A stretch of DNA of 64,000 nucleotides from an uncultured bacterium (GTDB lineage: Bacteria > Chlamydiota > Chlamydiia > Chlamydiales > JAAKFR01): contig CAYGJC010000003.1 in assembly GCA_964350245.1 (NCBI GenBank), positions 97,180 to 161,179 of the forward strand, read 5' to 3'. This document shows positions 2,665-59,059 of this stretch, in pieces. The notes under the pieces are model-generated. The model was given only the letters and a program-made list of their open reading frames with translations. It was not told the origin of the DNA and made no database searches. Numbering within the stretch: position 1 is the stretch's first letter; each line of letters opens with the position of its first letter. A program made the translations under genes and the position numbers.

Positions 2665-5600
2665 TCAGAGAGTGTACCCCGAGATATCCTTTTTCTCAAG
2701 AGATCCTCTGCTTTGCTCGATCGCCTCTTTATCACGTTTAATTTCTACCTTAAACGCTTCCCAAGTCATCAGATGTGAGGCTCTCAAACGCGCGTGCATG
2801 TAAGTATCTGGCGTACTCTTAATAAGCTGTGTGATCAGTTTGCTCATTTTTTCCCTACTGGCTTCTGTTTTTGTTCCAGAGTCCCACTCATCTATTGCTT
2901 TTTGAATAGAGTCAAGAAGAAGAGAGCTTGTATACACAGCAATGGCATACTGATATTGAGCCAGCCTTTCTGCTCCTATTTCCAAATTCGCTTTATAAGC
3001 CTCCAACTCGGCTTGCAAACGCTCTGGGTTGTCCTTTTGCAGAACTTTGACTGCTTGTTCGTGTAGATAATGCTGAGCTCGCACATCTTGAAGCACGCGT
3101 TGTTTTTGAGCCAGGGTTCTCAAAAGCTCTGTTTTTCTTTCCCCGTTAGCCAGCAGAGCGATTGTCTGTTTAAGCGTATCACATTCATACTCGATCGTGG
3201 TCATGACGAAGCTGAAAAACAATTGAGTGTTTTCCCGGCTCACTTGTTTACGTCGATAATGAAAGGTCAAATAGGCTTGCGTCTGTTTAAATGCTTCTAA
3301 TACGGATAGCAGCTCAACTTTTTTAGCTGCAAGCGCTTCAACTGGAAAACCGCCCAAACGGTTCCATTCTCGATTCGCAATGATAGAGCTGAGATCACCC
3401 TCCTCTCTTCTTTCTCCACCTCCTCTCATAGCATGGTCTAGTGCTTCAATGCGTTTTTCAGTGGCCTCTTGCTCTTGTTCAAAATGAACTAGAAGCGCTC
3501 TTTTTTTCTCCACTAAGACCTCAACTGGAAATTGCCGGAGAGTGTCCTGATCTGCTTCTCGATTAAGTACCCTTGTAAGAGCTTGCTCCAGATCACCTGT
3601 TGCATCCCGATCTGTTTCCCCTTCCATGGCCCCATCTAAAAGGGTGATCATGACGATAAAGTCGTTTTTCTGAGCCTTGATCTTATCCTCTGCCTGGACC
3701 TGAATTTGGCGCTCAATTTCCTTTCTTGTTTGCTCAGCCTTTTCAACAGTCTCGCTTACTAGTACGGTCCATCTCATGTTGTCTTCTTCTTTTTCGATGG
3801 CATGCTCTAAACGTTGACGCTGTTTAACAACAAAGTCCCTTTTCTCTGAATCTGTGGGCTCCTGTCTATTGGGAACAGAACGACGAGGAGGAAACACGGC
3901 CCTGCGCAACCCCGCCACCCGCTCTTCTTGTTCAGGCGTTCTTGCAGGAAGACTTAACAACCGTATCAACTCATTTCTGCACACAGGAAGAGCCATTGCA
4001 TTTCCTTCATGCACGAGCGCGCGTATCATTTGTTTGGCTTCCTCTTTAGTGCGGGGATTCAGCACTACCTCATTGCCCTCAGCAATGGTGCGAGACCACG
4101 TTCGCGTCACACCGGATAGATCATATCTCTGTTGAGTCGCCTGCAAGTACTGCAAACCGGGACGATTGCCAGGCAGACGCGATAGGGTGGGATGCTTGCT
4201 CAACACCCGATGCATTTTATACCCCTGCTTCTGCTTATCTAGCTTGCGCAAGTGGAAGCCAAGGTAGTACCATCCTCCTTTGATTAGGAAGGAAAGAATT
4301 GCCCCTCCCCAAACCACCCATGGATTGGACCAAAAAATCGCCTCAATGACCAGAAAGCCCGCAAGGATTCCCCACTCCAGCACGTGCTGTCCAAAAATGT
4401 TTGTAAAATACCTTTGACGATCGACCTTCATCAACTGGTTGTGTATGTCTCGCTCTTCAATCGTAGCCGCTTTAAATGGAGGTTGAAAGCGGCTGGTGGT
4501 GAGATCCGCCCAAAGCTTTGCCCGCTTAGATGCGTACCCTTTTAAGTGCATTTTCTTACGCAATCGTACCATCACCAAAGCTTCAAAAATATCGACATTG
4601 TCTTCGTTTAGCTCAGGGAATCTTGCCTGCGCCTCCGCTAGATGCTTCCTTAACTCAATCGAGTGCTCGTAAACTTCTAATAATGAATCGCCTAAAACCT
4701 CTTCATTAGCGACCAACCAGACACAGATTTCTTCGCCAAGGTGTTTCCTGACCTCTCCAATTTGACAATTGATTCGATCCGGATGCTGGTTAAGCCAGGC
4801 CCCAAGCCTTTCGATTAACTTATCCGAAAGCAGGCTCTTGTCAAACTGATCTATTTCAAGCCGGAAAGCGGCGATGCGATTCTGTGGTAGGGCCTTAACC
4901 TCAACTCGAGCTCTCCCTGTTAAGATCTGGGCACGCTGGGTTAAAAGGGCTACCAAACGCTCACCCTCAGATGGGTGGCGTGCAGCCAACCACTCTTTTA
5001 AATCCTCGATGATGAGTTGATCGGCATTTCTTTCTTTCGAAAAAGGAGTCCCTTCAATCAAAAGAGCATCGAGTGGATCTGTCTCCTTCCCTAGCTGAGC
5101 GTAAAGCGTAATCAGCTCTTTGTATAGGTGCGCTAAATGTTTAAAGTGGATTGCAAGAGCTTCTCTTTTAGCCTCCTCTGTTTGACCTTGAAAGGCCCCA
5201 GATCTTAATCCCTCACCTCCTTGCAGGAGAGCTAACTCTCTTGCAGTAGCAAGAAGCTTCTCGTACTCTTCAAACTCACCTACATATAAGTGCTTCTTCG
5301 CTTTGCTTACAAGCGCGCGCACCTGATTCCATTTTTCGGTCTGATCAGGAACTTGTGCAAGCGCCGAGCTCACTTGGGTTTGAAGAATAGGGGTAACCTC
5401 CAAATCTAATCCGTGTACAAGCTTGGCGATGCGTGCAGCCGACTTTGGATGCTTTGCTTCCAACTCCTTTTGCATCACCCGATCCGAACGTAACTGAGGA
5501 TCCACAGCTGGAAGGTCCCACTCACCGTGGGGCTGATGCACCAAAAGAGTGTTTTGAGAGAGCTGACCTCTTAGTAGCAAAGTGGCATCATAAAATTTTC

Positions 5601-5883
5601 GCTCCGCGTCTGCCTTTTCTTGGAACTTGCTGCTAGTTATACCGAGAAGTAAAGAGAGTGGAAAACAGACTCCAAAAGGAACCCAAACAGGAAGATAGAG
5701 CATCGCTCCAGAAGCTAAAACAAGCAAAAGCGCCGTTACCACCTGCATTACCTTTGCTGTCGTTTCCAACCTTTGGATCTTAGCCGGCAGAACAACACTA
5801 GACTCATTCAACGTTTGCTCAACGTTTTGAATCGATTGATGCTGGTGCAACCAACGACGGTTATTATGATAGATAGCAGCCAT
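2665..5883 (-). CDS. Large hypothetical membrane/coiled-coil protein, Inc-like or T3SS effector candidate
   Basis: 1072-aa ORF with an N-terminal bilobed hydrophobic segment (VVTALLLVLASGAMLYLPVWVPFGVCFPLSLLLGIT), a second hydrophobic hairpin mid-protein and a coiled-coil C-terminal half. Confidence 0.7.
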   Translation of the reverse strand: MAAIYHNNRRWLHQHQSIQNVEQTLNESSVVLPAKIQRLETTAKVMQVVTALLLVLASGAMLYLPVWVPFGVCFPLSLLLGITSSKFQEKADAERKFYDATLLLRGQLSQNTLLVHQPHGEWDLPAVDPQLRSDRVMQKELEAKHPKSAARIAKLVHGLDLEVTPILQTQVSSALAQVPDQTEKWNQVRALVSKAKKHLYVGEFEEYEKLLATARELALLQGGEGLRSGAFQGQTEEAKREALAIHFKHLAHLYKELITLYAQLGKETDPLDALLIEGTPFSKERNADQLIIEDLKEWLAARHPSEGERLVALLTQRAQILTGRARVEVKALPQNRIAAFRLEIDQFDKSLLSDKLIERLGAWLNQHPDRINCQIGEVRKHLGEEICVWLVANEEVLGDSLLEVYEHSIELRKHLAEAQARFPELNEDNVDIFEALVMVRLRKKMHLKGYASKRAKLWADLTTSRFQPPFKAATIEERDIHNQLMKVDRQRYFTNIFGQHVLEWGILAGFLVIEAIFWSNPWVVWGGAILSFLIKGGWYYLGFHLRKLDKQKQGYKMHRVLSKHPTLSRLPGNRPGLQYLQATQQRYDLSGVTRTWSRTIAEGNEVVLNPRTKEEAKQMIRALVHEGNAMALPVCRNELIRLLSLPARTPEQEERVAGLRRAVFPPRRSVPNRQEPTDSEKRDFVVKQRQRLEHAIEKEEDNMRWTVLVSETVEKAEQTRKEIERQIQVQAEDKIKAQKNDFIVMITLLDGAMEGETDRDATGDLEQALTRVLNREADQDTLRQFPVEVLVEKKRALLVHFEQEQEATEKRIEALDHAMRGGGERREEGDLSSIIANREWNRLGGFPVEALAAKKVELLSVLEAFKQTQAYLTFHYRRKQVSRENTQLFFSFVMTTIEYECDTLKQTIALLANGERKTELLRTLAQKQRVLQDVRAQHYLHEQAVKVLQKDNPERLQAELEAYKANLEIGAERLAQYQYAIAVYTSSLLLDSIQKAIDEWDSGTKTEASREKMSKLITQLIKSTPDTYMHARLRASHLMTWEAFKVEIKRDKEAIEQSRGSLEKKDISGYTL

Positions 5884-39472: not shown

Positions 39473-40525
39473 ATGGCTGAAAAAACCGAAAAGGCAACCC
39501 CGAAGAAGCTGAAAGATGCCCGGAAAAAAGGGCAGGTCGCCAAGTCTCAAGACTTCCCTTCTGCCATGACCTTCGTCACCGCAGTGGCTCTTACTCTCTA
39601 TATGGGCACCTACCTGTACAATCAGATTGGTGGGTTTATGATTGAGCTCTTCACAGCCGCCCCTCAAACAGATCTACTTGTGACAGCTCCCTTCTATCTC
39701 CAAGAGATGATCTCTGTTATTTTAAAGGCGTCGCTTCCCATTGCAGGCATCGTCTCGCTTGTGGGACTGATCGTCGGCTTTTTGGTGGTCGGCCCCACCT
39801 TTGCTGTTGAAGTCTTCAAGCCGAATCCTAAGAAATTCAACCCGGTAGACAATCTTAAACAGAAATTTAAGATGAAAACATTGGTGGAATTGATTAAATC
39901 GGTTCTAAAGATTTTTGGCGCAGCCCTTTTGATTTTTCTCGCTGTACGCCACAGTATTCGGGATCTGGTGGCAACGATCGCACTGCCCCCTGAAGCTTCG
40001 TTGATTATCTTTAAAAAGATCATTTATAAGGTGGTCGTTTGGATCGGGATTTACTTTATTTTGATCGCTCTTGCCGACTTACTCTATCAACGCTATAACT
40101 TCGGCAAAGAGATGAAGATGGAAAAGTTTGAGGTGAAACAGGAGTATAAGGATACGGAAGGAAATCCTGAGATTAAGGGAAAAAGACGGCAACTGGCTCA
40201 AGAGATTGCCTACGATGAGGGAACGACCAACATTCGAAGAGCTAAAGCCGTTGTCACAAACCCAAGAGACGTGGCTGTGGCCATTGGATATGAACCAGAA
40301 AAATATAAAGCCCCGTGGATCATTGCGATGGGGACAGAAAAGCGGGCTCTCAGTATGATAGCCCAAGCGGAGAAGTACCAAATTCCGATTATGCGCAACG
40401 TTCCGCTGGCACACCAATTGCTTGATGAGGGTGAGGTGAATAAGTTTGTTCCCGAGACGACCTACGATGCAGTTGGGGAAATTTTACTCTATGTGATCTC
40501 TTTGCGCGTAGAAGAAGGCGAATAG
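39473..40525 (+). CDS. sctU: T3SS export apparatus switch protein SctU (CdsU/YscU)
   Basis: EKTEKATPKKL.DARKKGQVAKS, 4 TMs, EVKQEYKDTEGNPEIK, autocleavage-site NP in TNPRD. Confidence 0.95.
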   Translation: MAEKTEKATPKKLKDARKKGQVAKSQDFPSAMTFVTAVALTLYMGTYLYNQIGGFMIELFTAAPQTDLLVTAPFYLQEMISVILKASLPIAGIVSLVGLIVGFLVVGPTFAVEVFKPNPKKFNPVDNLKQKFKMKTLVELIKSVLKIFGAALLIFLAVRHSIRDLVATIALPPEASLIIFKKIIYKVVVWIGIYFILIALADLLYQRYNFGKEMKMEKFEVKQEYKDTEGNPEIKGKRRQLAQEIAYDEGTTNIRRAKAVVTNPRDVAVAIGYEPEKYKAPWIIAMGTEKRALSMIAQAEKYQIPIMRNVPLAHQLLDEGEVNKFVPETTYDAVGEILLYVISLRVEEGE

Positions 40526-42661
40526 ATGAAGCGAATTACGAATTTTTTTGTTAGAGCCTTTAGTGGGGAAGCTGCTCTTTCGGCGATCAATCGCTCTAGC
40601 GATTTGATCTTAGCAGCTTGGATCATCGCAGTTATGGTGATGATCGTCCTTCCTGTGCCCCCTGCGGTCATTGACCTTCTGATTACCTTCAACCTAACGG
40701 CTGCTGTTGGCTTGTTGATGGTTGCTCTGTATATTCCGAGTGCCATCCACCTCTCTATGTTTCCAACGATGCTTCTTGTCACCACCTTGTTCCGTTTAGG
40801 TGTCAATATCTGTACTACCCGGCAAATTCTCCTACATGCTTACGCCGGAGATATCATCGGAGCCTTTGGTAATTTTGTGGTTGGTGGAAACTATGTCGTT
40901 GGTTTCGTGATCTTTTTGATCATCACCATTGTACAATTTATCGTTGTCACCAAAGGTGCTGAGCGAGTTGCTGAGGTAGCGGCGCGCTTCCGGTTGGACG
41001 CGATGCCCGGTAAGCAAATGGCGATTGATGCTGATATGCGCGCAGGAGTGATCGATAATAACCAGGCCAGAGACAAGCGCGCGCTTATTCAAAGGGAGAG
41101 TGAACTGTATGGAGCCATGGATGGTGCCATGAAGTTCGTCAAAGGAGACGTGATTGCCGGGATGGTGATCGCCTTCATTAACATTGTCGGTGGATTGATC
41201 ATCGGGGTGGCCCAGCACGGCATGACCCTAGCGCAAGCGGCCAAGGTCTACACCCTGCTTTCTATCGGGGATGGCCTTGTCTCTCAAATCCCCTCTCTTT
41301 TAATCTGCCTAACTGCAGGTATTGTGACTACTCGTGTCTCCAGCGACCGAAAAGACTCCAATATCGGTAAAGAGATCTCTATCCAACTTCTCCGTGAACC
41401 ACGCGCTTTGATCATTGCCGCAGCAGCCATTTTTGGTATTGGATTTTTAAAGGGATTTCCAGCTTGGCCTTTTGCGATCTTAGGCTTTATCTTAGCCACC
41501 AGTGGGATTGCCGTTTGGAGACGTCAGAAGAAGGAGGCCGCTCGGGTAGCTGCCGGTGGAGCTCCCGGAGCGATTGAAACCGATATCGAAGGACATGCGA
41601 TTGTCGGAAGTGGAAGTGAAGATTATGCGCTCACCCTGCCGGTCATCTTAGAGGCGGGAGACAATCTCTCTGCATTAATCGAGAAAAAAACCAAAGGTGC
41701 TCTCAATCTTGTCGAAGAGCTCATGCCACGCATGCGCCAGGCTCTTTATCAAGATCTGGGGATCCGCTTTCCCGGGGTCCATATACGGACTAAATCCCCC
41801 TCTTTGGAAAAAGACGAATACGCCATTTTACTTAATGAAGTTCCCGTCATTCGCGGAAAAATTCCTGACCACTACCTCCTTACCAATGAACTAGAAGAAA
41901 ATTTACGGCGCTACAATCTCCCCTTTATTGCCTATAAAAACGCCTCAGGCCTCCCCTCGTTATGGGTAGAAGATCAGTACAAAGAAATTATGGAAAAAGC
42001 AGGCATCAAGTACTGGACTTCTCTTGAGGTAGTCATTCTGCACCTCTCTTATTTCTTCCGTCAAAATGCTCAGGAGTTTCTTGGAATTCAAGAAGTACGC
42101 TCAATGTTAGAGTTTATGGAGCGCTCCTTCCCCGATCTTGTGAAAGAGGTCACCCGCCTGATTCCGCTGCAAAAACTCACTGAAATTTTCAAAAGGATCA
42201 CGCAGGAACAGATTTCGGTTAAGGATCTCCGTACGATTATGGAAGCTTTGAGTGAGTGGGCTCAGTCTGAAAAAGATACCGTCTTGCTGACTGAGTATGT
42301 CCGTGCATCCCTTAAACGATATATTAGTTATAAATACTCTCAGGGACAATCGACCCTTTCGGTCTATTTACTCGATCCTGAGATCGAGGAGATAGTGCGT
42401 GGAGCCATTAAACAGACATCGGCAGGCTCTTACCTCGCTTTGGATCCGGACTCTGTTAATTTGATTTTGAAAGGGATGCGTAATACTGTGACGCCTACAC
42501 CCCCTGGAGGACAGCCGCCTGTTCTTTTGACTGCTATCGATGTTCGTCGCTTCGTACGCAAATTGATTGAAACAGAGTATCCGGATGTTTCTGTTGTATC
42601 GTATCAAGAGATTCTTCCTGAGATTCGGATTCAACCTTTGGGAAGGGTTCAGCTAGCATAA
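40526..42661 (+). CDS. sctV: T3SS major export gate SctV (CdsV/LcrD)
   Basis: FHIPEP motifs KGAERVAEVAARFRLDAMPGKQMAIDAD, YGAMDGAMKFVKGD, GDGLVSQIP. Confidence 0.97.
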   Translation: MKRITNFFVRAFSGEAALSAINRSSDLILAAWIIAVMVMIVLPVPPAVIDLLITFNLTAAVGLLMVALYIPSAIHLSMFPTMLLVTTLFRLGVNICTTRQILLHAYAGDIIGAFGNFVVGGNYVVGFVIFLIITIVQFIVVTKGAERVAEVAARFRLDAMPGKQMAIDADMRAGVIDNNQARDKRALIQRESELYGAMDGAMKFVKGDVIAGMVIAFINIVGGLIIGVAQHGMTLAQAAKVYTLLSIGDGLVSQIPSLLICLTAGIVTTRVSSDRKDSNIGKEISIQLLREPRALIIAAAAIFGIGFLKGFPAWPFAILGFILATSGIAVWRRQKKEAARVAAGGAPGAIETDIEGHAIVGSGSEDYALTLPVILEAGDNLSALIEKKTKGALNLVEELMPRMRQALYQDLGIRFPGVHIRTKSPSLEKDEYAILLNEVPVIRGKIPDHYLLTNELEENLRRYNLPFIAYKNASGLPSLWVEDQYKEIMEKAGIKYWTSLEVVILHLSYFFRQNAQEFLGIQEVRSMLEFMERSFPDLVKEVTRLIPLQKLTEIFKRITQEQISVKDLRTIMEALSEWAQSEKDTVLLTEYVRASLKRYISYKYSQGQSTLSVYLLDPEIEEIVRGAIKQTSAGSYLALDPDSVNLILKGMRNTVTPTPPGGQPPVLLTAIDVRRFVRKLIETEYPDVSVVSYQEILPEIRIQPLGRVQLA

Positions 42662-42678
42662 AGGAGATTTAGGGGGGG

Positions 42679-43815
42679 ATGACAGATCCGATACCAATCA
42701 ACTTAGCCGCAATTGAGGCGCGTGCGACTCAAAAAGAAGCGACTCAAATTACTGCCTTTCAAGATGCTGCTAAATCTCGCTTTGTCGAAGAAATTGAAAG
42801 AGGATTTAATCCCGGCGCGGTTGAGCGAGAACAAGCGCGCAACAGCCGCTTTAAAACACTTGAGAGCCGGAAAAAAAATCCTACTTCTGAATCAAAACGA
42901 GTCGAAGGTGTCAAGGCAAAATCAGAAGAAGATCTCGCTCAAGACTACAATCGCCGTAATCCAGAGCTGCCCCCGGACCGTCTTCGTTCTTTAAAAGAAT
43001 CGCTGAAAGAAGGGCAGAGCGCCGAGGACATTCTATCCGACGTAAGCAAAGAGTTCCCTGATGCCACTCTGGCTGATGAAGCGCTGGAGTATCTGGAAAA
43101 AGAGACTGAAGGCAATTTGAACGCGTCGGTTCAAAAAGCACGCTCTCTACTCAACGAGCTTAAAGGGCGTGAGGTGATTGCGGGACGTAATGTGGATACT
43201 GTCGCCAAGTCCTATCACAAGCGAGGGGTCGGGGATAGCGCTACGGAGCTACGAGAACTCTATCGTGATATTACGGGCAACCCACGAAATCATAACACCC
43301 TATTCTCAGAGCTTGCCAATCGATATCCCTTCAACCAACTGAAACTAGTTGTGGCCTTCTTGTTGAAAGGGCTTGCCTACGACCTTAAATCAAAAGGCCC
43401 TTCGATCCCTCAGCCTGAACTCATGCGCTTAATGACTGAGACGCGTAATTTACAATCCATTCTGTGGGTTTACCTCTTTTTCAAATCTCGTATGAAGATG
43501 ATCGCCTCGCTATACAAATCCTACGGCCTCACCTTCACGCACCAGCTCGCTTTTGAAGCTTTAGCAAAAGAGTTCATTCGCCTGGTTGAAGAGCGCTACC
43601 CTTCTGTACTCAAACTGTTAAAGCAACTAGAGAAATTTGGTCCTTTAGATGAACTCGAACAAATTATTGTCTTGATGCAATATCGGGATGCCATTAGGCA
43701 ACTCTCCCCTCGCCTCTATAAATCGGTCAAGCACAGGCAGGACTTGCTGCTTGTGATCTTGGAATCATTAGAAGAGCTTGAAGAGAGAGTGATAGAAGAG
43801 GAAGATGAGGAGTAA
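42679..43815 (+). CDS. copN: T3SS gatekeeper CopN (SctW/LcrE)
   Basis: Position between sctV and scc1; HrpJ/YopN-like LRELYR and C-terminal TyeA-like region (AIRQLSPRLY...RQDLL) with acidic tail. Confidence 0.85.
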   Translation: MTDPIPINLAAIEARATQKEATQITAFQDAAKSRFVEEIERGFNPGAVEREQARNSRFKTLESRKKNPTSESKRVEGVKAKSEEDLAQDYNRRNPELPPDRLRSLKESLKEGQSAEDILSDVSKEFPDATLADEALEYLEKETEGNLNASVQKARSLLNELKGREVIAGRNVDTVAKSYHKRGVGDSATELRELYRDITGNPRNHNTLFSELANRYPFNQLKLVVAFLLKGLAYDLKSKGPSIPQPELMRLMTETRNLQSILWVYLFFKSRMKMIASLYKSYGLTFTHQLAFEALAKEFIRLVEERYPSVLKLLKQLEKFGPLDELEQIIVLMQYRDAIRQLSPRLYKSVKHRQDLLLVILESLEELEERVIEEEDEE

Positions 43816-43817
43816 CC

Positions 43818-44276
43818 ATGACCCCCTTTGAAGATTTGATTCGCGCGCTTGGAAAAGAAATGGACATTACCCTAGAGCCCGACTCACACCAGTCTTGTCT
43901 GCTCACTTTTCCTAAAGAAAACCTTTCGATCCAGATCGATCTAGATACGAGCGCCGAGCAAATTTTAATCGGATCACAGTTAGGAGAGGTGCCTCCAGGA
44001 TCCTATCGAGAACGTGTATTTACACAAGCCATGCGTGTGAATGGAACTTCGACGACCCCAAGAGGCATTCTCGCCTACAGTGAAATGAATGGAACCCTTA
44101 TTCTCTTTCAGTTTCTCTCTCTCGCCGCCCTTGATGGCCCTAAATTAAACGGCTTTGTACAGCTTTTCCGCGAGCACGCCAAAGCGTGGAAAGAGGCGCT
44201 GGACAAAGGAGAGCTCCCTCCTCTAGAGGAGGATGTAGTTCCTCCTGGAGATCCCATGTTTGGGATGAAGAGATGA
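43818..44276 (+). CDS. scc1: Class I T3SS chaperone Scc1 (SycE/CesT family)
   Basis: 152-aa acidic protein with CesT-like layout (LGEVPPG..RE, FREHAKAWKEAL); directly after copN. Confidence 0.82.
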   Translation: MTPFEDLIRALGKEMDITLEPDSHQSCLLTFPKENLSIQIDLDTSAEQILIGSQLGEVPPGSYRERVFTQAMRVNGTSTTPRGILAYSEMNGTLILFQFLSLAALDGPKLNGFVQLFREHAKAWKEALDKGELPPLEEDVVPPGDPMFGMKR

Positions 44277-45880
44277 AAGAGACGCTCAAACAAAAACTCC
44301 TACAGACCCCTGCAGGTCCGCAGTGGAGCCAAATTGGTGTGCGCCATCATCACGGCATCTGCGTTCCCCTTTTTTCTCTTCTCTCAGAGAGAAGTTGTGG
44401 CATAGGCGAGTTTCTTGACCTGATTCCCCTGATCGGCTGGTGCCAAGACTTGAAAATGGACGTGATTCAACTTTTGCCTCTCAATGACATCGGTCTTGGA
44501 ACCAGCCCCTATAGCGCTCTTTCTGCCAACGCATTGACTCCTATTCATCTCTCTCTTTTTGCCCTGCCCGACCTGGATCGAGTCCCTGACTACCAAGTCA
44601 AGCTGGCCAAAATACGGTATTGGAATCGAACCAGCCGCGTCAAGTATCACATTGTACGCGAGTTAAAATTTGCCTTTCTGCGTGAATATTTCCGTTGTGT
44701 CTACGATGACTTTTCAAGATCTGTCGATTACCGCTCCTTTATGGAGCAAAATCCGTGGCTCGTCCCCTACTCTCTTTTTAAAGCGCTTAAAGAAGATCAA
44801 ATGTGGAAAACCTGGGAAGAGTGGCCCACACACTTAAAGAGCCCCTCTGAAAAAGGTTATCATGAGCTACTCGAGCAGCACAAAGAGCGGTGCAATTTCC
44901 ACACCTTTCTCCAGTATCTCTGCTATAAGCAGCTTGAAGAGGTGAAAAAAATTGCCAACGAAAAAGGTGTCTACATCAAAGGAGATATACCGATCTTAAT
45001 TAGCCGCGATAGTGCGGATGTGTGGCACAAGCGACACCTTTTTTTTCTCCATCAGGCTGTTGGCGCTCCTCCGGACATGTATTCTCGTGATGGACAAGAT
45101 TGGGGCTTTCCGGTTTATGATTGGGAGGAGCTAGAGAAGCGTGACTACGACTGGTGGCGTGAAAGACTGCAGATCGCCTCGCACCTCTATAACCTCTATC
45201 GGATTGATCATGTGGTCGGATTTTTTCGTCTATGGACCATCCCACTTGGTAAAACAGCCAAAGAAGGACTGTTCACCCCTGCAAATCCGGAAGAGTGGAT
45301 TCCGCATGGAAAAAAACTCATGGAAATGATGATCAAAACAGCCCCCATTCTTCCTATCGGCGAAGATCTGGGGCTGGTTCCCGATTCGGTCAAACAGTGT
45401 CTCTATGATCTAGGCATTTGCGGAACTAAGATGATGCGCTGGGAGCGCAACTATGAGGCGGGAGGAAGCTTTATTCCAATTCAGGATTACCAGCCGATGA
45501 CCATGTCGACTGTATCGACGCATGACTCAGACACACTCCAACTATGGTGGCGTCATTTTCCCAAAGAAGCAAAGCTTTTCTCGGAATTTAAAGGGTGGGA
45601 TTATAAGCCCTTCTTAACCTTGGAACGGCATAAAGAGATTTTGTGTGACTCTCACCGCTCAGCAAGCCTTTTCCATATTAATTTACTGCAGGAGTACTTG
45701 GCTCTTTTCCCCGATCTTGTGTCCAAAAATGCCAACAACGAGCGTATCAACATTCCGGGTAAAATCCTCGATACCAACTGGACGTATCGTTTTCGCCTTC
45801 CGGTCGAAAAAATCGTGGCACATATCCCCTTACGCCATGCGATGAACGACATCATCCCTTCACAGCCAATGCCCCCTTAA
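44273..45880 (+). CDS. malQ: 4-alpha-glucanotransferase (amylomaltase, GH77)
   Basis: QLLPLND, SPYSALS, KGDIPI, GAPPDMYS..GQDWGFP, RIDHVVG, GEDLG, STHD, RINIPG. ATG 44273 overlaps the scc1 stop. Confidence 0.95.
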   Translation: MKETLKQKLLQTPAGPQWSQIGVRHHHGICVPLFSLLSERSCGIGEFLDLIPLIGWCQDLKMDVIQLLPLNDIGLGTSPYSALSANALTPIHLSLFALPDLDRVPDYQVKLAKIRYWNRTSRVKYHIVRELKFAFLREYFRCVYDDFSRSVDYRSFMEQNPWLVPYSLFKALKEDQMWKTWEEWPTHLKSPSEKGYHELLEQHKERCNFHTFLQYLCYKQLEEVKKIANEKGVYIKGDIPILISRDSADVWHKRHLFFLHQAVGAPPDMYSRDGQDWGFPVYDWEELEKRDYDWWRERLQIASHLYNLYRIDHVVGFFRLWTIPLGKTAKEGLFTPANPEEWIPHGKKLMEMMIKTAPILPIGEDLGLVPDSVKQCLYDLGICGTKMMRWERNYEAGGSFIPIQDYQPMTMSTVSTHDSDTLQLWWRHFPKEAKLFSEFKGWDYKPFLTLERHKEILCDSHRSASLFHINLLQEYLALFPDLVSKNANNERINIPGKILDTNWTYRFRLPVEKIVAHIPLRHAMNDIIPSQPMPP

Positions 45881-52481: not shown

Positions 52482-52510
52482 TTGCAAGATACATGCCAGG
52501 GTGCTATAGT
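52482..52510 (+). promoter_or_regulatory. Putative sigma66/sigma70 promoter of rpmB
   Basis: TTGCAA-N17-TATAGT ending 30 nt before the rpmB ATG. Confidence 0.6.
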
Positions 52511-52540
52511 CTTTTCTCAATTCAAGTTTGGAGTTTTACA

Positions 52541-52816
52541 ATGTCTAGGAAGTGTCAAGTTACAGGCAAGAAACCGAAGCCGGGATTTAGCTATACCATT
52601 CGTGGAATCGCTAAAAAGAAGAAAGGAATCGGACTCAACATTACAGGAAAAAACAAACGCCGTTTTCTTCCAAACCTAGTGACTAAGCGTTTTTGGTTTC
52701 CTGAAGAGAACCGTTTTGTGACCCTTCGTCTTTCCACATCCGCGATGCGCACCATCGATAAGCGCGGTTTAGCGACTGTTGTAAAAGAAATGCGTGCACA
52801 AGGTCAGAAAATCTAA
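52541..52816 (+). CDS. rpmB: 50S ribosomal protein L28
   Basis: [12 protein letters not shown]...[12 protein letters not shown]...RRFLPNL...TIDKRG, the chlamydial long form; GGAG RBS. Confidence 0.96.
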
Positions 52817-54577
52817 ATGTTGAACCTCAGACAATTTCTTCAGGCTCTGCGGGAATCTGGAGAAGTTGTTAATGTTCACCACGAAGTAGACACCGATCTT
52901 GAACTCGCTGAAATTCATAGACGTGTGGCCGCAGCAGACGGCCCCGCACTTTTTTTTCACCGCGTTAAAAACTCTCCTTTTCCTGTTGTTACCAACCTTT
53001 TTGGCTCACGCAAGCGGGTCCATCTCGCCTTCCCTCATCATCCGGAAAAGATTATTGCTGATCTAATCAAGCTCATGACACAAGATTTTCCTCCGACTCC
53101 CAAAATTCTGTGGGAGCATCGGAAAACCTTGAAAAGCTTGTTACATATGGGAACCAAAAAGCGTGGATCGGGTCCCATTCAGCAAAACTGTGTCTCCCCG
53201 CCGGACTTGGAGAAGCTCCCTCTACTTAAAACATGGCCCTTGGACGGAGGCCATTTTGTCACCTTACCTCTTGTCTATACAGAACCACCGGAAGGCGGCC
53301 CGCCTAATCTAGGGATGTACCGTATTCAGCGCTATAATGCGCGGGAAACAGGGCTCCATTTTCAGATCCAAAAGGGGGGTGGCTTTCACTATCACCAAGC
53401 AGAGGCTCTCAATCAAGCTCTGCCCGTTTCGATTTTTATTGGAGGCCCACCCGCTCTAATCTTAAGCGCCATCACGCCTCTGCCTGAAAACGTGCCTGAG
53501 CTCCTCATCTGCGGTTTGATGCAAGGGAAAAAGCTTGACACCTGCTCCTCTACCCACACTCCCCACCCCTTGATTTCCGAATGTGAGTTTGCTCTTGTGG
53601 GCAAAGCGCGCCCCCATATCCGTCGCGATGAAGGGCCGTTTGGGGATCACTATGGTTACTACAGCTGGGCACATGAGTTTCCGGTCTTTGAGTGCGACGC
53701 TCTTTATCACAGAAAAGATGCGATTTATCCCGCAACGATTGTGGGCAAACCCAGGCAGGAAGATTTCTACATCGGTGATTATCTCCAAGAGCTTCTCTCA
53801 CCTCTTTTTCCCATTGTCATGCCTGGCGTCAAAGATCTATGGAGTTATGGAGAGACCGGCTTTCACTCTTTGTCCGCTGCTGTTGTAAAAGAACGCTATT
53901 ACCGCGAGTGTATGGCCTCCGCTTTCCGCATTTTGGGTGAAGGACAGCTCTCTTTGACCAAATTTTTGCTCGTAACCGACCAGCCCGTTAACCTGCGTAA
54001 CTTCCGTGAGCTCCTCACCACTGTTCTAGAGAGATTCACACCCGAAACGGATCTATTTATATTTGCAAACCTCTCCCTAGACACCCTTGATTATACCGGC
54101 CCCGAACTTAACAAAGGATCCCGCGGAGTGATGCTCGGTGTGGGTGAGAAAAAGCGCGATCTGCCCCTCTCTTATGTAGGAGGACTTCCCCCAGGCATCT
54201 CTAAAGTTGGTGTCTATCTGCCAGGATGCCTTCTGATCGAAGGTGAGATGAATGAAGCTCTATTGGATTTTTCGGGATTTAAGCAGTGGCCTCTTGTGAT
54301 TCTTGTCGATAGTGTGGATAAGACACTCCACTCGGATACAGCATTTTTGTGGACTGTATTCACTCGCTTTGAGCCAGCCGCTGATATCCATGCAAAAGCA
54401 CATATTGTGCGGAATCACATTGCCTATTCGGGATCTATTTTGATTGACGCACGGATGAAAGAGACGTATCCTCCCGTAGTGACGTGCGCGCCGGATACCG
54501 CGCAGTTAGTTACCCAGAATTGGAACCACTATTTTCCGGATGGAATGGAAATGGGGGAAAGTGAAGGTGATTTATAA
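52817..54577 (+). CDS. UbiD-family decarboxylase (futalosine menaquinone pathway MqnL-like)
   Basis: NLFGS, NLGMYRIQ, EGPFGDHYGYY, IVGKPRQED, TLDYTGP, WTVFTRFEPAAD. Confidence 0.88.
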   Translation: MLNLRQFLQALRESGEVVNVHHEVDTDLELAEIHRRVAAADGPALFFHRVKNSPFPVVTNLFGSRKRVHLAFPHHPEKIIADLIKLMTQDFPPTPKILWEHRKTLKSLLHMGTKKRGSGPIQQNCVSPPDLEKLPLLKTWPLDGGHFVTLPLVYTEPPEGGPPNLGMYRIQRYNARETGLHFQIQKGGGFHYHQAEALNQALPVSIFIGGPPALILSAITPLPENVPELLICGLMQGKKLDTCSSTHTPHPLISECEFALVGKARPHIRRDEGPFGDHYGYYSWAHEFPVFECDALYHRKDAIYPATIVGKPRQEDFYIGDYLQELLSPLFPIVMPGVKDLWSYGETGFHSLSAAVVKERYYRECMASAFRILGEGQLSLTKFLLVTDQPVNLRNFRELLTTVLERFTPETDLFIFANLSLDTLDYTGPELNKGSRGVMLGVGEKKRDLPLSYVGGLPPGISKVGVYLPGCLLIEGEMNEALLDFSGFKQWPLVILVDSVDKTLHSDTAFLWTVFTRFEPAADIHAKAHIVRNHIAYSGSILIDARMKETYPPVVTCAPDTAQLVTQNWNHYFPDGMEMGESEGDL

Positions 54578-55412
54578 CATCTATGCTAATATCTGCTACG
54601 CGATTACAGGTCCTTTCAGTGCTCAGGCCTCTGGAAGCAATTTGCACAGACTCATTGACGAGCAAAAAGAGTATGTCCTTTACTACAGATTTGATGGACT
54701 TCACCCTCTTGCCTACGCCGTGAAAATTGGAGATCAACCGGCTGTGGCTAGTCTACTTAGATACAGCGCACTGGACGACTACCACAAAGAGAATCAAGAG
54801 ACCATCATACACACTTATGTCCGCACCCTTTGTGAGACTCAACCTCCCAATATGCAGCTTTTAAGGCTTCTTTTTAACCACATGCCTGCAGAGTACTACC
54901 GCGGGAGCCTCATGTCGTGCACATTAGATCATGTCAAGCAGTTCGAGATCATCCCTTGGAATGTCATCCAAGAGCTTCTTCGGAGAGGGATCGGTACAAC
55001 AACTAAGCCAGACACAGATCTCTCTCCCACGAATAAAATCATTTATCTATGCCTTCAACAGAAACCTCCCGCTCGGGCTCAAGTTGAGAGAGTTCTTTCG
55101 GATCAAGTCAATCAATTGCGCACGGATTGTGAAACGTGGGCACGCACACATACATTAACGCGCTCTCAAACAAAAACGTTCTCACCTCTTCTTAACGAAC
55201 AAATCAAAAAGACAAAAGCAGCTCTACTGCACACGATTCCACAACGTGCCGTCGCTGTTGCCTCCCTTACAAAGGCCTATGGATCTGCTATTATTCAACC
55301 CGAAGCCCTGGCAGCCATAGCTGAGCTCTCAGAAGAGTGCAAGCAGCTCATTAGTAGTCTTGCCAGCGAAACATCTCAGGGTTCATCGTCGTCAGGTAAT
55401 AAATCTCCCTAA
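54540..55412 (+). CDS. Hypothetical protein with a possible degenerate ankyrin-like repeat
   Basis: 290 aa; GLHPLAYAVKIGDQPAVASLLRYSA resembles one ankyrin repeat; Ser-rich tail; start uncertain. Confidence 0.5.
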   Translation: MEWKWGKVKVIYNIYANICYAITGPFSAQASGSNLHRLIDEQKEYVLYYRFDGLHPLAYAVKIGDQPAVASLLRYSALDDYHKENQETIIHTYVRTLCETQPPNMQLLRLLFNHMPAEYYRGSLMSCTLDHVKQFEIIPWNVIQELLRRGIGTTTKPDTDLSPTNKIIYLCLQQKPPARAQVERVLSDQVNQLRTDCETWARTHTLTRSQTKTFSPLLNEQIKKTKAALLHTIPQRAVAVASLTKAYGSAIIQPEALAAIAELSEECKQLISSLASETSQGSSSSGNKSP

Positions 55413-55599
55413 ACGCCTGTTGAAACTCGGCATCCTCTAGACGGATGCACTCTTTACCATTGTAGATCCCCCGCATCCCATGTGGAACAGGAATGCCGAT
55501 TGAGCGCATCTCTTTTTCCAGATACTTATTATAAAAAATAGTGCGGTCTCCCTCAAATTCCACCAAGGATTGAGAGGTTTTTGTGTTGATCAGTCTCAT
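55351..55599 (-). CDS. Small hypothetical protein (82 aa)
   Basis: GGGGA RBS before ATG 55599, protein-like composition; overlaps the 3' end of the kinase gene on the same strand. Confidence 0.6.
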   Translation of the reverse strand: MRLINTKTSQSLVEFEGDRTIFYNKYLEKEMRSIGIPVPHGMRGIYNGKECIRLEDAEFQQAFREIYYLTTMNPEMFRWQDY

Positions 55600-56521
55600 A
55601 TTCCCCTAAAATACGTTCTATCTCTTCATTGACATATTGGGTAAATGTTGTCCAGTTTTCAGCTCCTCGCTCAAGCAATCGTTTGATCAAAAGCTCAAAT
55701 TTGGAGTCAGGAGCGCTTCTGCTATAGGTTTTAGACAACATGTCTCCAATGTTGTGCGGGTAAAGCCCCCGCATTACCCCCATTTTTAAAAGCATTGTAG
55801 CTACATAGAGGCGGTTGGCAACCCCCTCAGCTAGCCCCGTCTCTTCAATCAAAAGGGCACGGTCTTTTTCCGGATCAATCCATGAAATATAGCTCTGCTC
55901 CTCTTCAGAAAAGGGAGTCGCGGCTTGATTCCAACACATCCACACAAAGTGGACACTACCCAGCTCGCTTGGAAGTGCGAAACCGTGATCAATGGGCACC
56001 GCTTCTGTCTCATTGCAGATTAAAATATTCGAGCTGTGGCGATCTGCATTGATTACGCGAATGTCAAGCTGAGCAATTCGACGAATGGGGGCTGGCGAAA
56101 AGCCCCCATAAGCCTGATCTGCCAGCTCTACTGCTGAGATGCTATCTTCCACATAAAGCTGGCATGAACCTGTCGCCTCTCCTCCAAAAAGAGGATGCGT
56201 GAAAGCGGCAATCACAGTCGGTGGCACTCCTGCAAACCTTTTGTGATCTAATCGATAAGTTGCATACTCCTGCAGGTAGTGCTCTTGCTTGAAAACGGCA
56301 AGGGGCCTGCCATCCTCGTCTTTTAAAAAATACGTCTGCGAGGTGCCCTGAGCACTCTTTTCAGGGGCAATCCCTTTCTTAAGAGCACGCTTTACCTCCC
56401 AAATCACATCACTCATCTCAGGCGCATGCCGGAGCGTACGTAATTGATAGGCCGGATCATTAACAAAGACCTCTGGATGATAGGCCAGAAATCGAGACAC
56501 TTTTTGAACTGTTGGACGCAT
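55553..56521 (-). CDS. PI3/PI4-kinase-family protein resembling type II PI4K
   Basis: Gly-loop GTSQTYF, AVFK, E..TY.LD...AGVPPT, GSCQLYV, catalytic LDIRVINADRHSSNILI, PIDHGFALP, W..WNQAATPFS; GAGGGG RBS. Confidence 0.85.
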   Translation of the reverse strand: MRPTVQKVSRFLAYHPEVFVNDPAYQLRTLRHAPEMSDVIWEVKRALKKGIAPEKSAQGTSQTYFLKDEDGRPLAVFKQEHYLQEYATYRLDHKRFAGVPPTVIAAFTHPLFGGEATGSCQLYVEDSISAVELADQAYGGFSPAPIRRIAQLDIRVINADRHSSNILICNETEAVPIDHGFALPSELGSVHFVWMCWNQAATPFSEEEQSYISWIDPEKDRALLIEETGLAEGVANRLYVATMLLKMGVMRGLYPHNIGDMLSKTYSRSAPDSKFELLIKRLLERGAENWTTFTQYVNEEIERILGEYETDQHKNLSILGGI

Positions 56522-56567
56522 TTACCCCTCTTGCCCTATTATGAATTATTTTTAAAATAAAGGAAAC

Positions 56568-57596
56568 ATGCTCAAACGTCTGATCAAACCCGCCCGCTTT
56601 CTCTTTACCCTTCTCATCCTACTTCTGTTCTTTTACTTAGAAGAGAGACCCTCCCTCTCTTCCAATGAACCTGTTCAACTCTACGCCTCAGCTTGTCATG
56701 ACGATCTGCGCAAAGTCGTCCTGAATGCCATTCAAGAAGCTTCTGATTCTATCTATTTGGTCATGTATTCGTTAAATGAAGATAAGGTGATTAAAGCTCT
56801 GAATCAAAAAGCCAAAGAGGGTGTGGATATCACCGTCGTCTATGATCCCACAACCCCGCAGGATGGATACGAGAAACTCATTGGAATCAAGCGTCTCCCG
56901 GTCAAAATCAGTGGGCTGATGCACAAAAAAATCTTAATCGTGGATCAGGAAAAGGTTCTGGTGGGCTCTGCGAATTTCACACGTGGATCTCTTCGCTCGC
57001 ATGACAATCTAATTGTCGGTGCCACAAGCACCGAGCTTTCTCGCGTAATCCAAAACGAAGAAGCTGAGAAAAAATTCATTGTAGGGGGTCAACGCCTTGA
57101 ATTCTGGTCTCTTCCCCGCGACCGAAAAGAGGGATTGGCCCGCTTAATCGGACTGATTGAAGGGGCTCAGAAGACCATTCAGGTGGCGATGTATACGTGG
57201 ACCCATCCCGGGCTGACCGAAGCGATTGTAAGTGCCCATCTACGTGGTGTTCGTGTTGAGGTGATTTTAGATCGTGGACAGGCCAATGGTGTGGGACAAA
57301 AGGCGCTCAACAATCTCGTCAATTCCGGTGTGCCCGTTTGGTTAAGTACAGGGCGGAAGCTTCTTCATCACAAATGCCTAGTTGTAGACAGTGCAATCTT
57401 AGTGAATGGGTCTGCGAACTGGACAAAAGCTGCCTTTTCGCGCAACCACGATTGCTTTTTTGTCCTACAGGACTTATCTGAGGAGCAAAAAGAGAAGCTG
57501 GCCACCCTTTGGAAGCGCACCCGCACACTTTCAACCCGTAAAACACCTTCTAAGATTGTGCAGCTGCCTCGTCACTTTCATAGGCAGGCGGCTTGA
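56568..57596 (+). CDS. Phospholipase D superfamily protein (two HKD motifs)
   Basis: N-terminal TM/signal; MHKKILIVD...GSANFT and LHHKCLVVD...GSANWT. Confidence 0.92.
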   Translation: MLKRLIKPARFLFTLLILLLFFYLEERPSLSSNEPVQLYASACHDDLRKVVLNAIQEASDSIYLVMYSLNEDKVIKALNQKAKEGVDITVVYDPTTPQDGYEKLIGIKRLPVKISGLMHKKILIVDQEKVLVGSANFTRGSLRSHDNLIVGATSTELSRVIQNEEAEKKFIVGGQRLEFWSLPRDRKEGLARLIGLIEGAQKTIQVAMYTWTHPGLTEAIVSAHLRGVRVEVILDRGQANGVGQKALNNLVNSGVPVWLSTGRKLLHHKCLVVDSAILVNGSANWTKAAFSRNHDCFFVLQDLSEEQKEKLATLWKRTRTLSTRKTPSKIVQLPRHFHRQAA

Positions 57597-57613: not shown

Positions 57614-58466
57614 CTATTCTTCAATAATCCCCTTTTGTAGCCAAGCATTTATATTTTTGATGATCACCCCTAGATCTGATGATAGGGTATGTCCTTGTGA
57701 AAGACCTCTTATATGAGCTGTCCAATAGCGCTGCAACCTGTCTAATTCTACTTCAGTGAAATAGATTGGGAGTCGTTTTTGGGTCTTGCGGTGTGCAAGA
57801 ACCAAATCAATCACTTTCTTTGTCCGTTTGAAATCGAGCACACCAGAACGAATCATGACACTCAAGTCATGAAAGTCCTTCATGCGGCTATTGCCCGCTC
57901 CTCGATAGATGATCGTCTCCAGTTTTTCAGCAAAAATGAATTCTTTAGGGTAGCAGGTGACTTTTACTTTACTTTCCAAAAGTGCCCCCTTACTTCCACT
58001 GGTTAGTGGAATTGTCATGGCAGTGGGTGCGACAACATCTCCAAATCCAAGGTCTATGTTTACTGGAAATCGTGTTTTACCAAAAAAGGAGAACATACTC
58101 GCTCGCACACCAGGGTACTTCATATGGGGATGAGGTAGATCATTGATTCTAAGATCTGTGAATCGAAATCTATCATCAATTGAAACAGTGATAACTTCAG
58201 CTAGTACTTTTTCCAAGGTTTCTATTTCATTGCTGAGCCTTTGTACAAGAAAATCCAAATCCCGCGTGTAGCGATTTAGTTGCACATAGTGAGACAAAAG
58301 CACTCCACCCTTCAGAAACAAAATGAGAGGAATGGTTAGAATGACTGAGTCGAACCAGAAATCGTTCCAAAACAAGATTTTGCCACAGCTGAGCAGGATC
58401 AAGACGCTTTTCTCGAGCAATATTGCGGAGGCGGGATTTAAAAGAATTTTCAAGTGCTGTAGTCAT
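57614..58466 (-). pseudogene. AbiEii/AbiGii-family nucleotidyltransferase toxin, split by a 1-nt frameshift
   Basis: ORF 58227-58466 gives the N-terminus (MTTALENSFKSRLRN...LERFLVRLSHSNHSSHFV); ORF 57614-58453 gives LKGGVLL...RYTRDLDF...IDLGFGD...AEKLETI...NSRMKDFHD. Removing one T from GTTT at 58316-58319 fuses them into HFVLKGG. Confidence 0.85.
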
Positions 58467-59059
58467 GTCGTCAATGCTAAGATATAGGGTGTTAGGTTTA
58501 CTCTGAGTTTTTTTGCGTACACTTGGAGCTTGCGCAGGTCAGGCTTAGGGTCTTTTGCTTGGAGGTAGGCCTGCAAAGCTTTAATCGCAATTTCAGGGCT
58601 GAGATATCTAAAAGCATCGACAATACTACGCTCCCGATCAAAAATAGCCAATTCATACTCGCCAACTTGGATGGTTGTCTTCCCAAGTGTCGTATTTCGC
58701 ATACGGACGGCTCTTAAGCAACTGCGTATAGGTACTTTTTTAGAGTGTGGAATCGCCAGCCAGTGTTCACGGGGGATTTGATCTGTTAAACCATACAAAT
58801 CAAGAGCAGAAATCAGACAAATAACCGCATTTGGAGTAGTAAAGGCTGTCAAAGCAAGGCCTTCTAATGCAATTCCTGCTTCTCCTTCGTAGCTGGGATT
58901 ATGGTATATTCCCTTTGCAAGGCGCTCTATTAACCCAATCTTTTCGAAATAAGCCAAACCATGCCTGGGAATACCCAACTCTAACGCTTCAGCAGTTGTA
59001 AACGCGGGCTTCCTCAGTAGCCTTCTAAGTAGGGGGTAATATTTGGATCTCGAACGCAT
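58463..59059 (-). CDS. Type IV toxin-antitoxin AbiEi-family antitoxin
   Basis: N-terminal wHTH (LIERLAKGIY), ICLISALDLYGLTDQIP, IFDRERSIVDAFRY; ATGA overlap with the toxin start. Confidence 0.9.
   Translation of the reverse strand: MRSRSKYYPLLRRLLRKPAFTTAEALELGIPRHGLAYFEKIGLIERLAKGIYHNPSYEGEAGIALEGLALTAFTTPNAVICLISALDLYGLTDQIPREHWLAIPHSKKVPIRSCLRAVRMRNTTLGKTTIQVGEYELAIFDRERSIVDAFRYLSPEIAIKALQAYLQAKDPKPDLRKLQVYAKKLRVNLTPYILALTT

Follow-up and report, generated by a model that had tools for sequence, protein, structure and literature searches.

What does a kinase of eukaryotic type do in an environmental chlamydia, and does it act on a lipid or on a protein? The question is raised by an intact open reading frame (ORF) of 322 amino acids (aa) with an ATG start, located at 55553..56521 on the minus strand of a stretch of 64,000 nucleotides (nt), here called the window, from contig CAYGJC010000003.1 of an uncultured bacterium of the Chlamydiales (assembly GCA_964350245.1). 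The gene encodes a minimal kinase resembling type II phosphatidylinositol (PI) 4-kinases (PI4Ks) and belongs to what is called the short clade below. A sequence-only reading had taken it for a host-derived, phosphoinositide-editing effector of the inclusion membrane. The reading favoured here, with slightly less than even confidence, is that of a soluble, competent kinase with the type II PI4K (PI4KII) fold that is devoid of the insertion known as I1 and would work with an 82-aa partner, the product of orf82, most likely on protein. The purine-rich, Shine-Dalgarno-like sequence AAGAGGGG, read at 56525..56532 on the minus strand, is situated 3 nt 5' of the ATG, inside the 46-bp intergenic region between the kinase gene and a divergent PLD-family gene; promoter-like hexamers in the vicinity are consensus matches only.

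On the combined evidence of Pfam, sequence and predicted fold, the protein is a genuine member of the type II PI4K family. The motifs listed in the sequence-only reading are all present in the translation, namely AVFK (with K78), AGVPPT, GSCQ, LDIRVINADRHSSN and PIDHG, as are the C-terminal pattern W194..W197.QA..PFSEEE..YI..IDP..D...L and the helix TMLLK..G...IG.M, a motif set that lies far beyond chance. PF00454 (PI3_PI4_kinase) is the sole Pfam family above cut-off, at 58.5 bits where 27.1 are required (E 1.2e-15); the Pfam scan revealed no ubiquitin domain, in agreement with the earlier description of a minimal kinase without ubiquitin-like domains. The kinase core is preceded by 28 N-terminal residues. 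When all PDB sequences were searched with phmmer, human PI4KII-beta and PI4KII-alpha were the sole matches (E 7e-7 to 6e-6), spanning two blocks, helical hairpin/G-loop/VFK and IDxG..W..W..QA..PFSEE. An AlphaFold2 model made from a 35-row alignment reached a mean predicted local distance difference test score (pLDDT) of 90.9 and a predicted template modelling score (pTM) of 0.87, with the ATP-site geometry at pLDDT > 90. In a Foldseek comparison of this model with the PDB, the first 12 rows were all PI4KII-alpha/beta (best E 1.9e-13, TMq 0.62); Vps34 and PI3Ks came next at ~1e-5, eight orders of magnitude weaker.

Kinship with HipA/YjjJ or CtkA was ruled out by Pfam and Foldseek: HipA_C gave no match to the kinase at E <= 0.1, and neither HipA nor CtkA was among the 50 best Foldseek rows. 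The TIGR03843 model (SCO1664 family) matched residues 146-209 only, with 27 bits against a cut-off of 172.4 (E 2.6e-6), and by this sequence measure the kinase is not a member of the SCO1664 family.

The kinase is probably catalytically competent, its catalytic machinery being intact since the residues concerned are invariant across short, long and eukaryotic sequences. The key residues are the ATP-binding K78, E85 of helix alphaC, the catalytic loop D160-R-H-S-S-N165 and the metal-binding D178 within PIDHG, which we take to be the equivalent of D346 of human PI4KII-alpha; W194/W197 are located in the activation loop. In the 35 aligned short, long and eukaryotic sequences, P53, K78, E85, D92, P100, Q121, D153, N158, D160, R161, N165, D178 and H179 are invariant, and K78, E85, D160, N165 and D178 are kept in 25/25 rows of the short clade. 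The ratio of nonsynonymous to synonymous substitution rates (dN/dS) relative to an 88%-identical ortholog is 0.076, indicating strong purifying selection. The protein is without a signal peptide or transmembrane (TM) segment (maximum KD19 1.05) and has an isoelectric point (pI) of 5.5.

What distinguishes the short clade is the loss of insertions that are important in the human enzyme. According to the passages covered of a structural study of human PI4KII-alpha (PMC3974213), K152 binds ATP and residues 308-315 form the catalytic loop; I1 (residues 157-190) comprises an amphipathic helix and the palmitoylated CCPCC motif, and the second insertion, I2 (residues 217-255), is RK-rich and binds the membrane. 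The same passages describe a putative PI pocket to which I1 contributes E157, Y159, R181 and L184, with T307, D308 and L349 as the other lining residues; activity is abolished in the double mutants E157/Y159 and L184/L349. By the same account, the closest structural counterparts of the human enzyme are protein kinases, which are without I1-I3 (PMC3974213). In the kinase from the window, I1 (K78..E85) has shrunk to 6 residues, as the sequence-only reading had rightly observed of the loop after VFK, and I2 (T102..G118) is 15 residues long. There is no Cys motif at I1 that would indicate a palmitoylated insertion, and I2 (PLFGGEAT...) is not Arg/Lys-rich. The short clade as a whole (n = 25) has a median I1 of 9 residues (range 6-17) and a median I2 of 15, whereas the medians for I1 and I2 are 34 and 22 in a second chlamydial clade, called X (n = 12), 38 and 28 in the clade of long forms (n = 10), 36 and 24 in named eukaryotes (n = 9), and 35 and 21 in unlabelled rows (n = 39). 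Plant, Diplonema and long chlamydial sequences retain the conserved FKPxDEEP with which I1 begins; clade X has a variant of it, and the kinase lacks it. As every other clade has I1, its absence from the short clade is most simply explained by a derived deletion: in a longer PI4KII-like ancestor, I1 would have been deleted and I2 shortened. To judge from the alignment, the short clade is a return to the bare kinase core.

This loss bears on the substrate, which is most likely a protein, because the lipid- and membrane-binding parts are gone and the nearest eukaryotic relatives act as protein kinases. In the parts of the wheat study covered here, TaPI4KII-gamma autophosphorylated on threonine and showed no in vitro PI kinase activity, and the same outcome is cited there for Arabidopsis UbDK-gamma4/7 (PMC3741686). 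These gamma-type data and the lost insertions I1 and I2 jointly make synthesis of PI 4-phosphate (PI4P) in the manner of PI4KII-alpha unlikely. The phosphoinositide-editing role proposed earlier is weakened on both counts, I1 being lost and the plant gamma-type enzymes having shown protein kinase but no detectable lipid kinase activity. The kinase would thus most likely phosphorylate protein on Ser/Thr rather than convert PI to PI4P; roughly half of our expectation falls on protein, the other half being shared about equally by PI lipid and by something else. Its site of action would be either the interior of the bacterium or, following type III secretion, the host, with a slight lean to the host.

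The putative partner is encoded by orf82, an orphan gene at 55351..55599 on the minus strand that shares 47 nt with the 3' end of the kinase gene and is provided with a purine-rich site of its own. Both genes are probably carried on one transcript, and the orf82 protein is a likely partner, regulator or substrate of the kinase. Its conserved core reads GIP.PHG.RG.Y.GK...L.D..FQQAF.EIYY. The gene is located directly 3' of the kinase gene in 8/9 relatives with a short kinase, and its product is the better conserved of the two (identities to relatives of 96/74/75/55-59% versus 88/66/65/50% for the kinase); relative to the ortholog from the genome with the 88%-identical kinase, dN/dS is 0.034. The orf82 family has 27 members, all named ones being chlamydial hypothetical proteins, and has no Pfam domain. 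Pfam and NCBIfam scans of 16 members at E <= 10 yielded single chance matches only and no DUF3090, and an Atlas search with orf82 gave no usable match. Across 41 genomes, 23 orf82-like places were found, of which 13 adjoin a PI4K-like gene from at least four kinase lineages: eight stand beside short kinases and the rest beside kinases of the types labelled G033, G013b/G007/G015 and G036, after the genomes. The kinase gene is the upstream one in 12 of these 13 pairs. That the pairing recurs in several kinase lineages speaks for a functional link between the two genes. Strict dependence on the short kinase is not the case, as orf82 is retained where that kinase is missing: in four such genomes (G001, G004, G006 and G016) it directly adjoins the PLD gene, with a gap of 65 nt and no kinase remnant in G001. 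A kinase-orf82 complex predicted from alignments scored 0.00, a value that carries no verdict either way.

Four observations weigh against a protein-directed kinase-orf82 module. PI3Ks phosphorylate PI without an I1, so that lipid kinase activity could persist after its loss. The membrane-facing aromatics of the activation loop (the Y365/W368 region of PI4KII-alpha) are retained as W194/W197, and orf82 stands beside the PLD gene in 4/4 examined relatives without the short kinase. Finally, the plant finding, as given in the passages covered, is an in vitro negative obtained with a different clade (PMC3741686).

A word-indexed protein search with the kinase gave 72 matches among 2336 candidates. 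Those numbered P0002 to P0039 (308-368 aa, 88-38% identity) are, where named, hypothetical proteins from metagenome-assembled genomes of Chlamydiales/Chlamydiae, and the closest one (88% identity) is from a 'Chlamydiales bacterium'; with the genes sctU-sctV-copN-chaperone-malQ in the window, this bears out the chlamydial setting assumed by the sequence-only reading. The next matches (E ~1e-34, 32-36% identity) include gamma-type PI4Ks from Genlisea, Brassica and Digitaria as well as a Diplonema protein named "PI4K gamma 7"; ubiquitin domains occur in several of them, and the kinase is indeed nearer to these plant/protist enzymes than to HipA or CtkA. An exhaustive search of representative proteins returned 2093 matches at E <= 1e-3, of which 56 reached E <= 1e-30. 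In an Atlas look-up, Streptophyta PI4K clusters ranked first (0.88), followed by Nematoda PI4K type 2 and Chlamydiota clusters (0.87); all values are below 0.9 and serve as leads only.

Within genomes, the short form was defined as an ORF of 261-357 aa matching at E <= 1e-38. It occurs in 9/41 relatives, the window's own genome included, and in 9 genomes of a phylum-wide sample of 401, every one of them from the window's family; it is missing from G001 and G004, two genomes of the same genus. This patchy distribution makes the short kinase an accessory gene of one environmental chlamydial family. No relatives were detected among 67 pattern matches when viral contigs were scanned with short-clade patterns. 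A description of chlamydial PI4KII-like kinases was not found in a literature search that left subscription journals and supplements outside its scope, and a 2025 review on PI4Ks and pathogens makes no mention of bacterial PI4KII genes in the passages covered (PMC13573033).

The position of the short clade among PI4KII-like proteins was examined in three trees: a FastTree tree of 256 rows, with every second long-form match used (43/86), a quick IQ-TREE tree of 111 rows, and a careful tree of 68 rows x 356 columns under LG+C20+F+G4 PMSF that omits the long-branch rows G036, G323, G013b and G009 and 39 others. No outgroup is included, animal and fungal PI4KII are absent from the sampling, and in the presumed eukaryotic clade a taxon label is missing from most rows. 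The three trees agree on a monophyletic short clade (100/100), on chlamydial clade X (100/100), which holds the genome-derived ORFs of G325, G333, G387, G295 and G384, on the long forms as a third clade (100/99) and on the presumed eukaryotic clade (96/90), which comprises 30 rows. Nine rows bear a eukaryotic label, a ubiquitin domain or an NCBI source that is unnamed, and this last clade takes in every one of them. P0085, a high-scoring unlabelled row of the same clade, has a best match of 37% identity in 401 chlamydial genomes; as a close match is lacking there, the 30-row clade is consistent with being non-chlamydial.

In the careful tree, the short clade is the sister of the presumed eukaryotic clade with moderate support (ultrafast bootstrap, UFBoot, 88 / SH-aLRT 80). 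The affinity with eukaryotic gamma-type kinases was recovered as sisterhood, not as nesting inside that clade. A tree constrained to unite the short clade with clade X had a better likelihood under LG+G4 than the quick free tree, and the approximately unbiased (AU) test did not reject it (p-AU 0.948); simple models such as LG+G4 pull long branches together. With no outgroup, and with the eukaryotic clade lying wholly to one side of one branch, the tree is compatible with a transfer from chlamydiae to eukaryotes as well as with the reverse. The host origin proposed in the sequence-only reading is neither shown nor refuted by an unrooted tree in which the sister placement reaches 88/80 only and the alternative grouping stands unrejected. 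Bit scores from phmmer against human PI4KII-alpha / PI4KII-beta were 62.6 / 52.6 for a long paralog from the same genome, 29 / 31.8 for the short form, 26.4 / 28.9 for Brassica gamma, 27.3 / 29.7 for Diplonema and 19.1 / 23.1 for clade X. By this crude measure the long form is closer to the animal type and the short form to the gamma type, which hints at more than one interdomain event.

The long paralog just mentioned is a PI4KII-like protein of 507 aa with PF00454, encoded outside the window on contig C11 of the same genome (locus L001, 1390..2913, minus strand). Although only 23% identical to the short kinase, it has the invariant catalytic residues in common with it, and it retains I1 (38 residues, FKPFDEE...) and an RK-rich I2. 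A search with it gave 86 proteins, all named ones chlamydial. A weak long-type match is present in most genomes of the family, 20/24 of which have some PF00454-like match. Its gene is flanked by one for a TPR (PF07720-type, class-II-type) type III secretion (T3S) chaperone and by a gene of the PF04518 effector family; in further genomes, the chaperone gene was found in 6/6 flanks and the effector-family gene in 5/6. Judged by sequence and gene context, it is a better candidate than the short kinase for a secreted PI4P writer. At least four or five PI4KII-like lineages occur in the Chlamydiota: families f5, f20, f21 and f24 have clade X, and G079/G226 represent a separate type. The forms in other chlamydial families range over 407-809 aa, and those at loci L029-L036 and L025 over 406-790 aa. 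In G033, the gene for a 790-aa PI4KII-like protein is followed by an orf82-like gene.

The long paralog is of direct importance for the alternative that survives best, namely that the short kinase is itself a PI 4-kinase secreted by the type III secretion system (T3SS), which writes PI4P on the inclusion and so replaces the host PI4KII-alpha recruited by Chlamydia trachomatis. This is possible, if doubtful. According to the covered passages of the review cited above, pathogenic Chlamydia rely on PI4P and on recruited host PI4KII-alpha, depletion of which impairs C. trachomatis vacuoles (PMC13573033). The short kinase combines a true type II PI4K fold with a complete set of catalytic residues, has W194/W197 and PFSEE in common with human PI4KII, and has eukaryotic signalling kinases as its nearest named outside relatives; it carries no signal peptide or TM segment, and its distribution is patchy and accessory in the way typical of effectors. 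T3SS genes are present in the window on the plus strand, where sctU (Bac_export_2), sctV (FHIPEP), copN (HrpJ/CopN) and a CesT-type chaperone gene occupy 39473-44276 and are followed by malQ (block 39473-45880), a typical chlamydial arrangement. Nothing, however, ties the kinase to this T3SS, and the effector label given to it earlier has lost ground: no chaperone gene is adjacent, the neighbours are the housekeeping genes for UbiD, rpmB and PLD, and it is the 507-aa paralog that holds the T3S chaperone/effector locus. That locus does favour PI4P writing as such, but it makes the I1/I2-bearing paralog the more natural writer, as do the 62.6 versus 29 bits to human PI4KII-alpha. Moreover, with I1 the short kinase has lost the membrane anchor and the positions corresponding to E157, Y159, R181 and L184, its I2 is shortened, and it is tightly paired with a small, highly conserved protein. 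Its gamma-type relatives have no detectable lipid kinase activity in the passages covered (PMC3741686). A secreted, host-derived PI4P writer is thus plausible but unsupported, and weakened by the loss of I1.

The tight pairing would also suit a two-gene module of kinase and small partner that works inside the bacterium on a bacterial protein, a small molecule or a lipid and is never secreted, a rather unlikely explanation. The 47-nt overlap, the higher conservation of orf82, the recurrence of the pair with other chlamydial kinase lineages (kinase first in 12/13), the strong purifying selection and the housekeeping surroundings, conserved beside a membrane PLD, all fit it. The TIGR03843 match (E 2.6e-6) points the same way but is far too weak at 27 bits versus 172.4, and none of the 16/16 orf82 members scanned has a match to DUF3090 or another family. 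The nearest named non-chlamydial relatives of the kinase are eukaryotic rather than bacterial, and the kinase is dispensable in close relatives. In obligate intracellular bacteria, to which this organism belongs, eukaryote-like signalling enzymes are usually effectors.

A wider scenario, improbable as a whole, would combine an old chlamydial PI4KII toolkit with a division of labour, in which the long form is a T3SS-dependent PI4P writer, the short form with orf82 a host-directed protein-kinase module, and plant/protist PI4K-gamma the specific sister of a chlamydial clade. If true, that sisterhood would record an ancient gene transfer between chlamydiae and eukaryotes, and the long form would supply inclusion PI4P without host PI4KII-alpha. 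The loss of I1 and the shortened I2 could mean decay of the original function, leaving a scaffold or pseudokinase that has no catalytic activity and serves for binding only; this is very improbable because the catalytic residues are invariant in 25/25 short-clade rows and dN/dS is 0.076, with an ATP site modelled at pLDDT > 90.

The genome that contains the window measures 1.88 Mb and is 99% complete; the window DNA is present in 4 DNA runs of one biofilm-metagenome study, which may be the source of the assembly. Next to the kinase-orf82 pair, the plus strand carries the rpmB and UbiD genes (52493-54577) and an orphan ORF of 290 aa (54540-55412) that overlaps the end of the UbiD gene and converges on orf82. 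This orphan has no Pfam/NCBIfam match, is 63% identical to its closest relative (88-96% for its neighbours) and was not found in the loci of more distant relatives; it could be a protein that is specific to the lineage and evolves fast, or else a spurious ORF. On the other side, divergent from the kinase gene, the PLD-family gene (56568-57596, plus strand) encodes a protein with two PLDc_2/HKD domains, an N-terminal hydrophobic anchor segment and a pI of 9.7. In NCBIfam this protein is most similar to models for NucT-like nucleases and cardiolipin synthase, with no score reaching the cut-off of its model. The gene is retained beside orf82 and UbiD across the family, whether the kinase is present or not. 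The PLD protein was rejected as a dedicated partner of the kinase, as its gene keeps this place where the kinase is missing and is not found beside the kinase lineages of other families; its proximity is probably family-level synteny rather than functional partnership, since it is retained without the kinase. The next genes past it encode an AbiEii toxin/AbiEi antitoxin pair (57614-59059, minus strand) of the type IV toxin-antitoxin or abortive-infection type, which looks recently inserted because tblastn detected no trace of it within 6 kb at the locus of the closest relative (L015). Elsewhere in the window, two large ORFs on the minus strand, of 1072 aa (2665-5883) and 1160 aa (25931-29413), have no Pfam match at E <= 1e-5 and could encode lineage-specific surface or effector proteins.

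The occurrence of PI4KII-like kinases of their own, in several forms, in environmental chlamydiae would offer a handle on the evolution of inclusion lipid identity. The short form can be regarded as a natural deletion experiment, in which the PI4KII catalytic core persists without the I1 needed by the human enzyme to bind the membrane and PI. Its activity would show whether the fold defaults to a lipid or a protein kinase, which bears on plant PI4K-gamma as well. With orf82, an uncharacterised protein family is added that recurs beside chlamydial PI4K-like kinases.

Among known systems, bacterial PI kinases are the first to be compared. LepB and MavQ of Legionella, OpiA of Francisella, LegA5 of Legionella and Risk1 of Rickettsia are, in the parts of the literature covered, examples of an intracellular bacterium's own PI kinase. 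LepB, MavQ, OpiA/LegA5 and Risk1 are PI3K-like or atypical and are not known to be relatives of type II PI4Ks; to our knowledge, none of them has been described in an I1-less type II form or with an 82-aa partner. Other chlamydial PI4KII-like clades have PF00454 and the catalytic residues in common with the kinase, and some are likewise followed by an orf82-like gene. With plant and protist PI4K-gamma, it shares DRH..N (NADRHSSN), the PIDHG variants and the C-lobe helices, whereas in those enzymes the I1 loop FKPxDEEP...NP (25-37 residues) is present and N-terminal ubiquitin-like domains are frequent. The best structural match is human PI4KII-alpha/beta (4HND, 4HNE, 4PLA, 4WTV), which has the same helical hairpin and G-loop, VFK lysine, DRxxxN, IDxG, activation-loop aromatics and PFSEE; in contrast to it, the kinase, ~22% identical, has no I1, a short I2 and no Pro-rich N-terminus.

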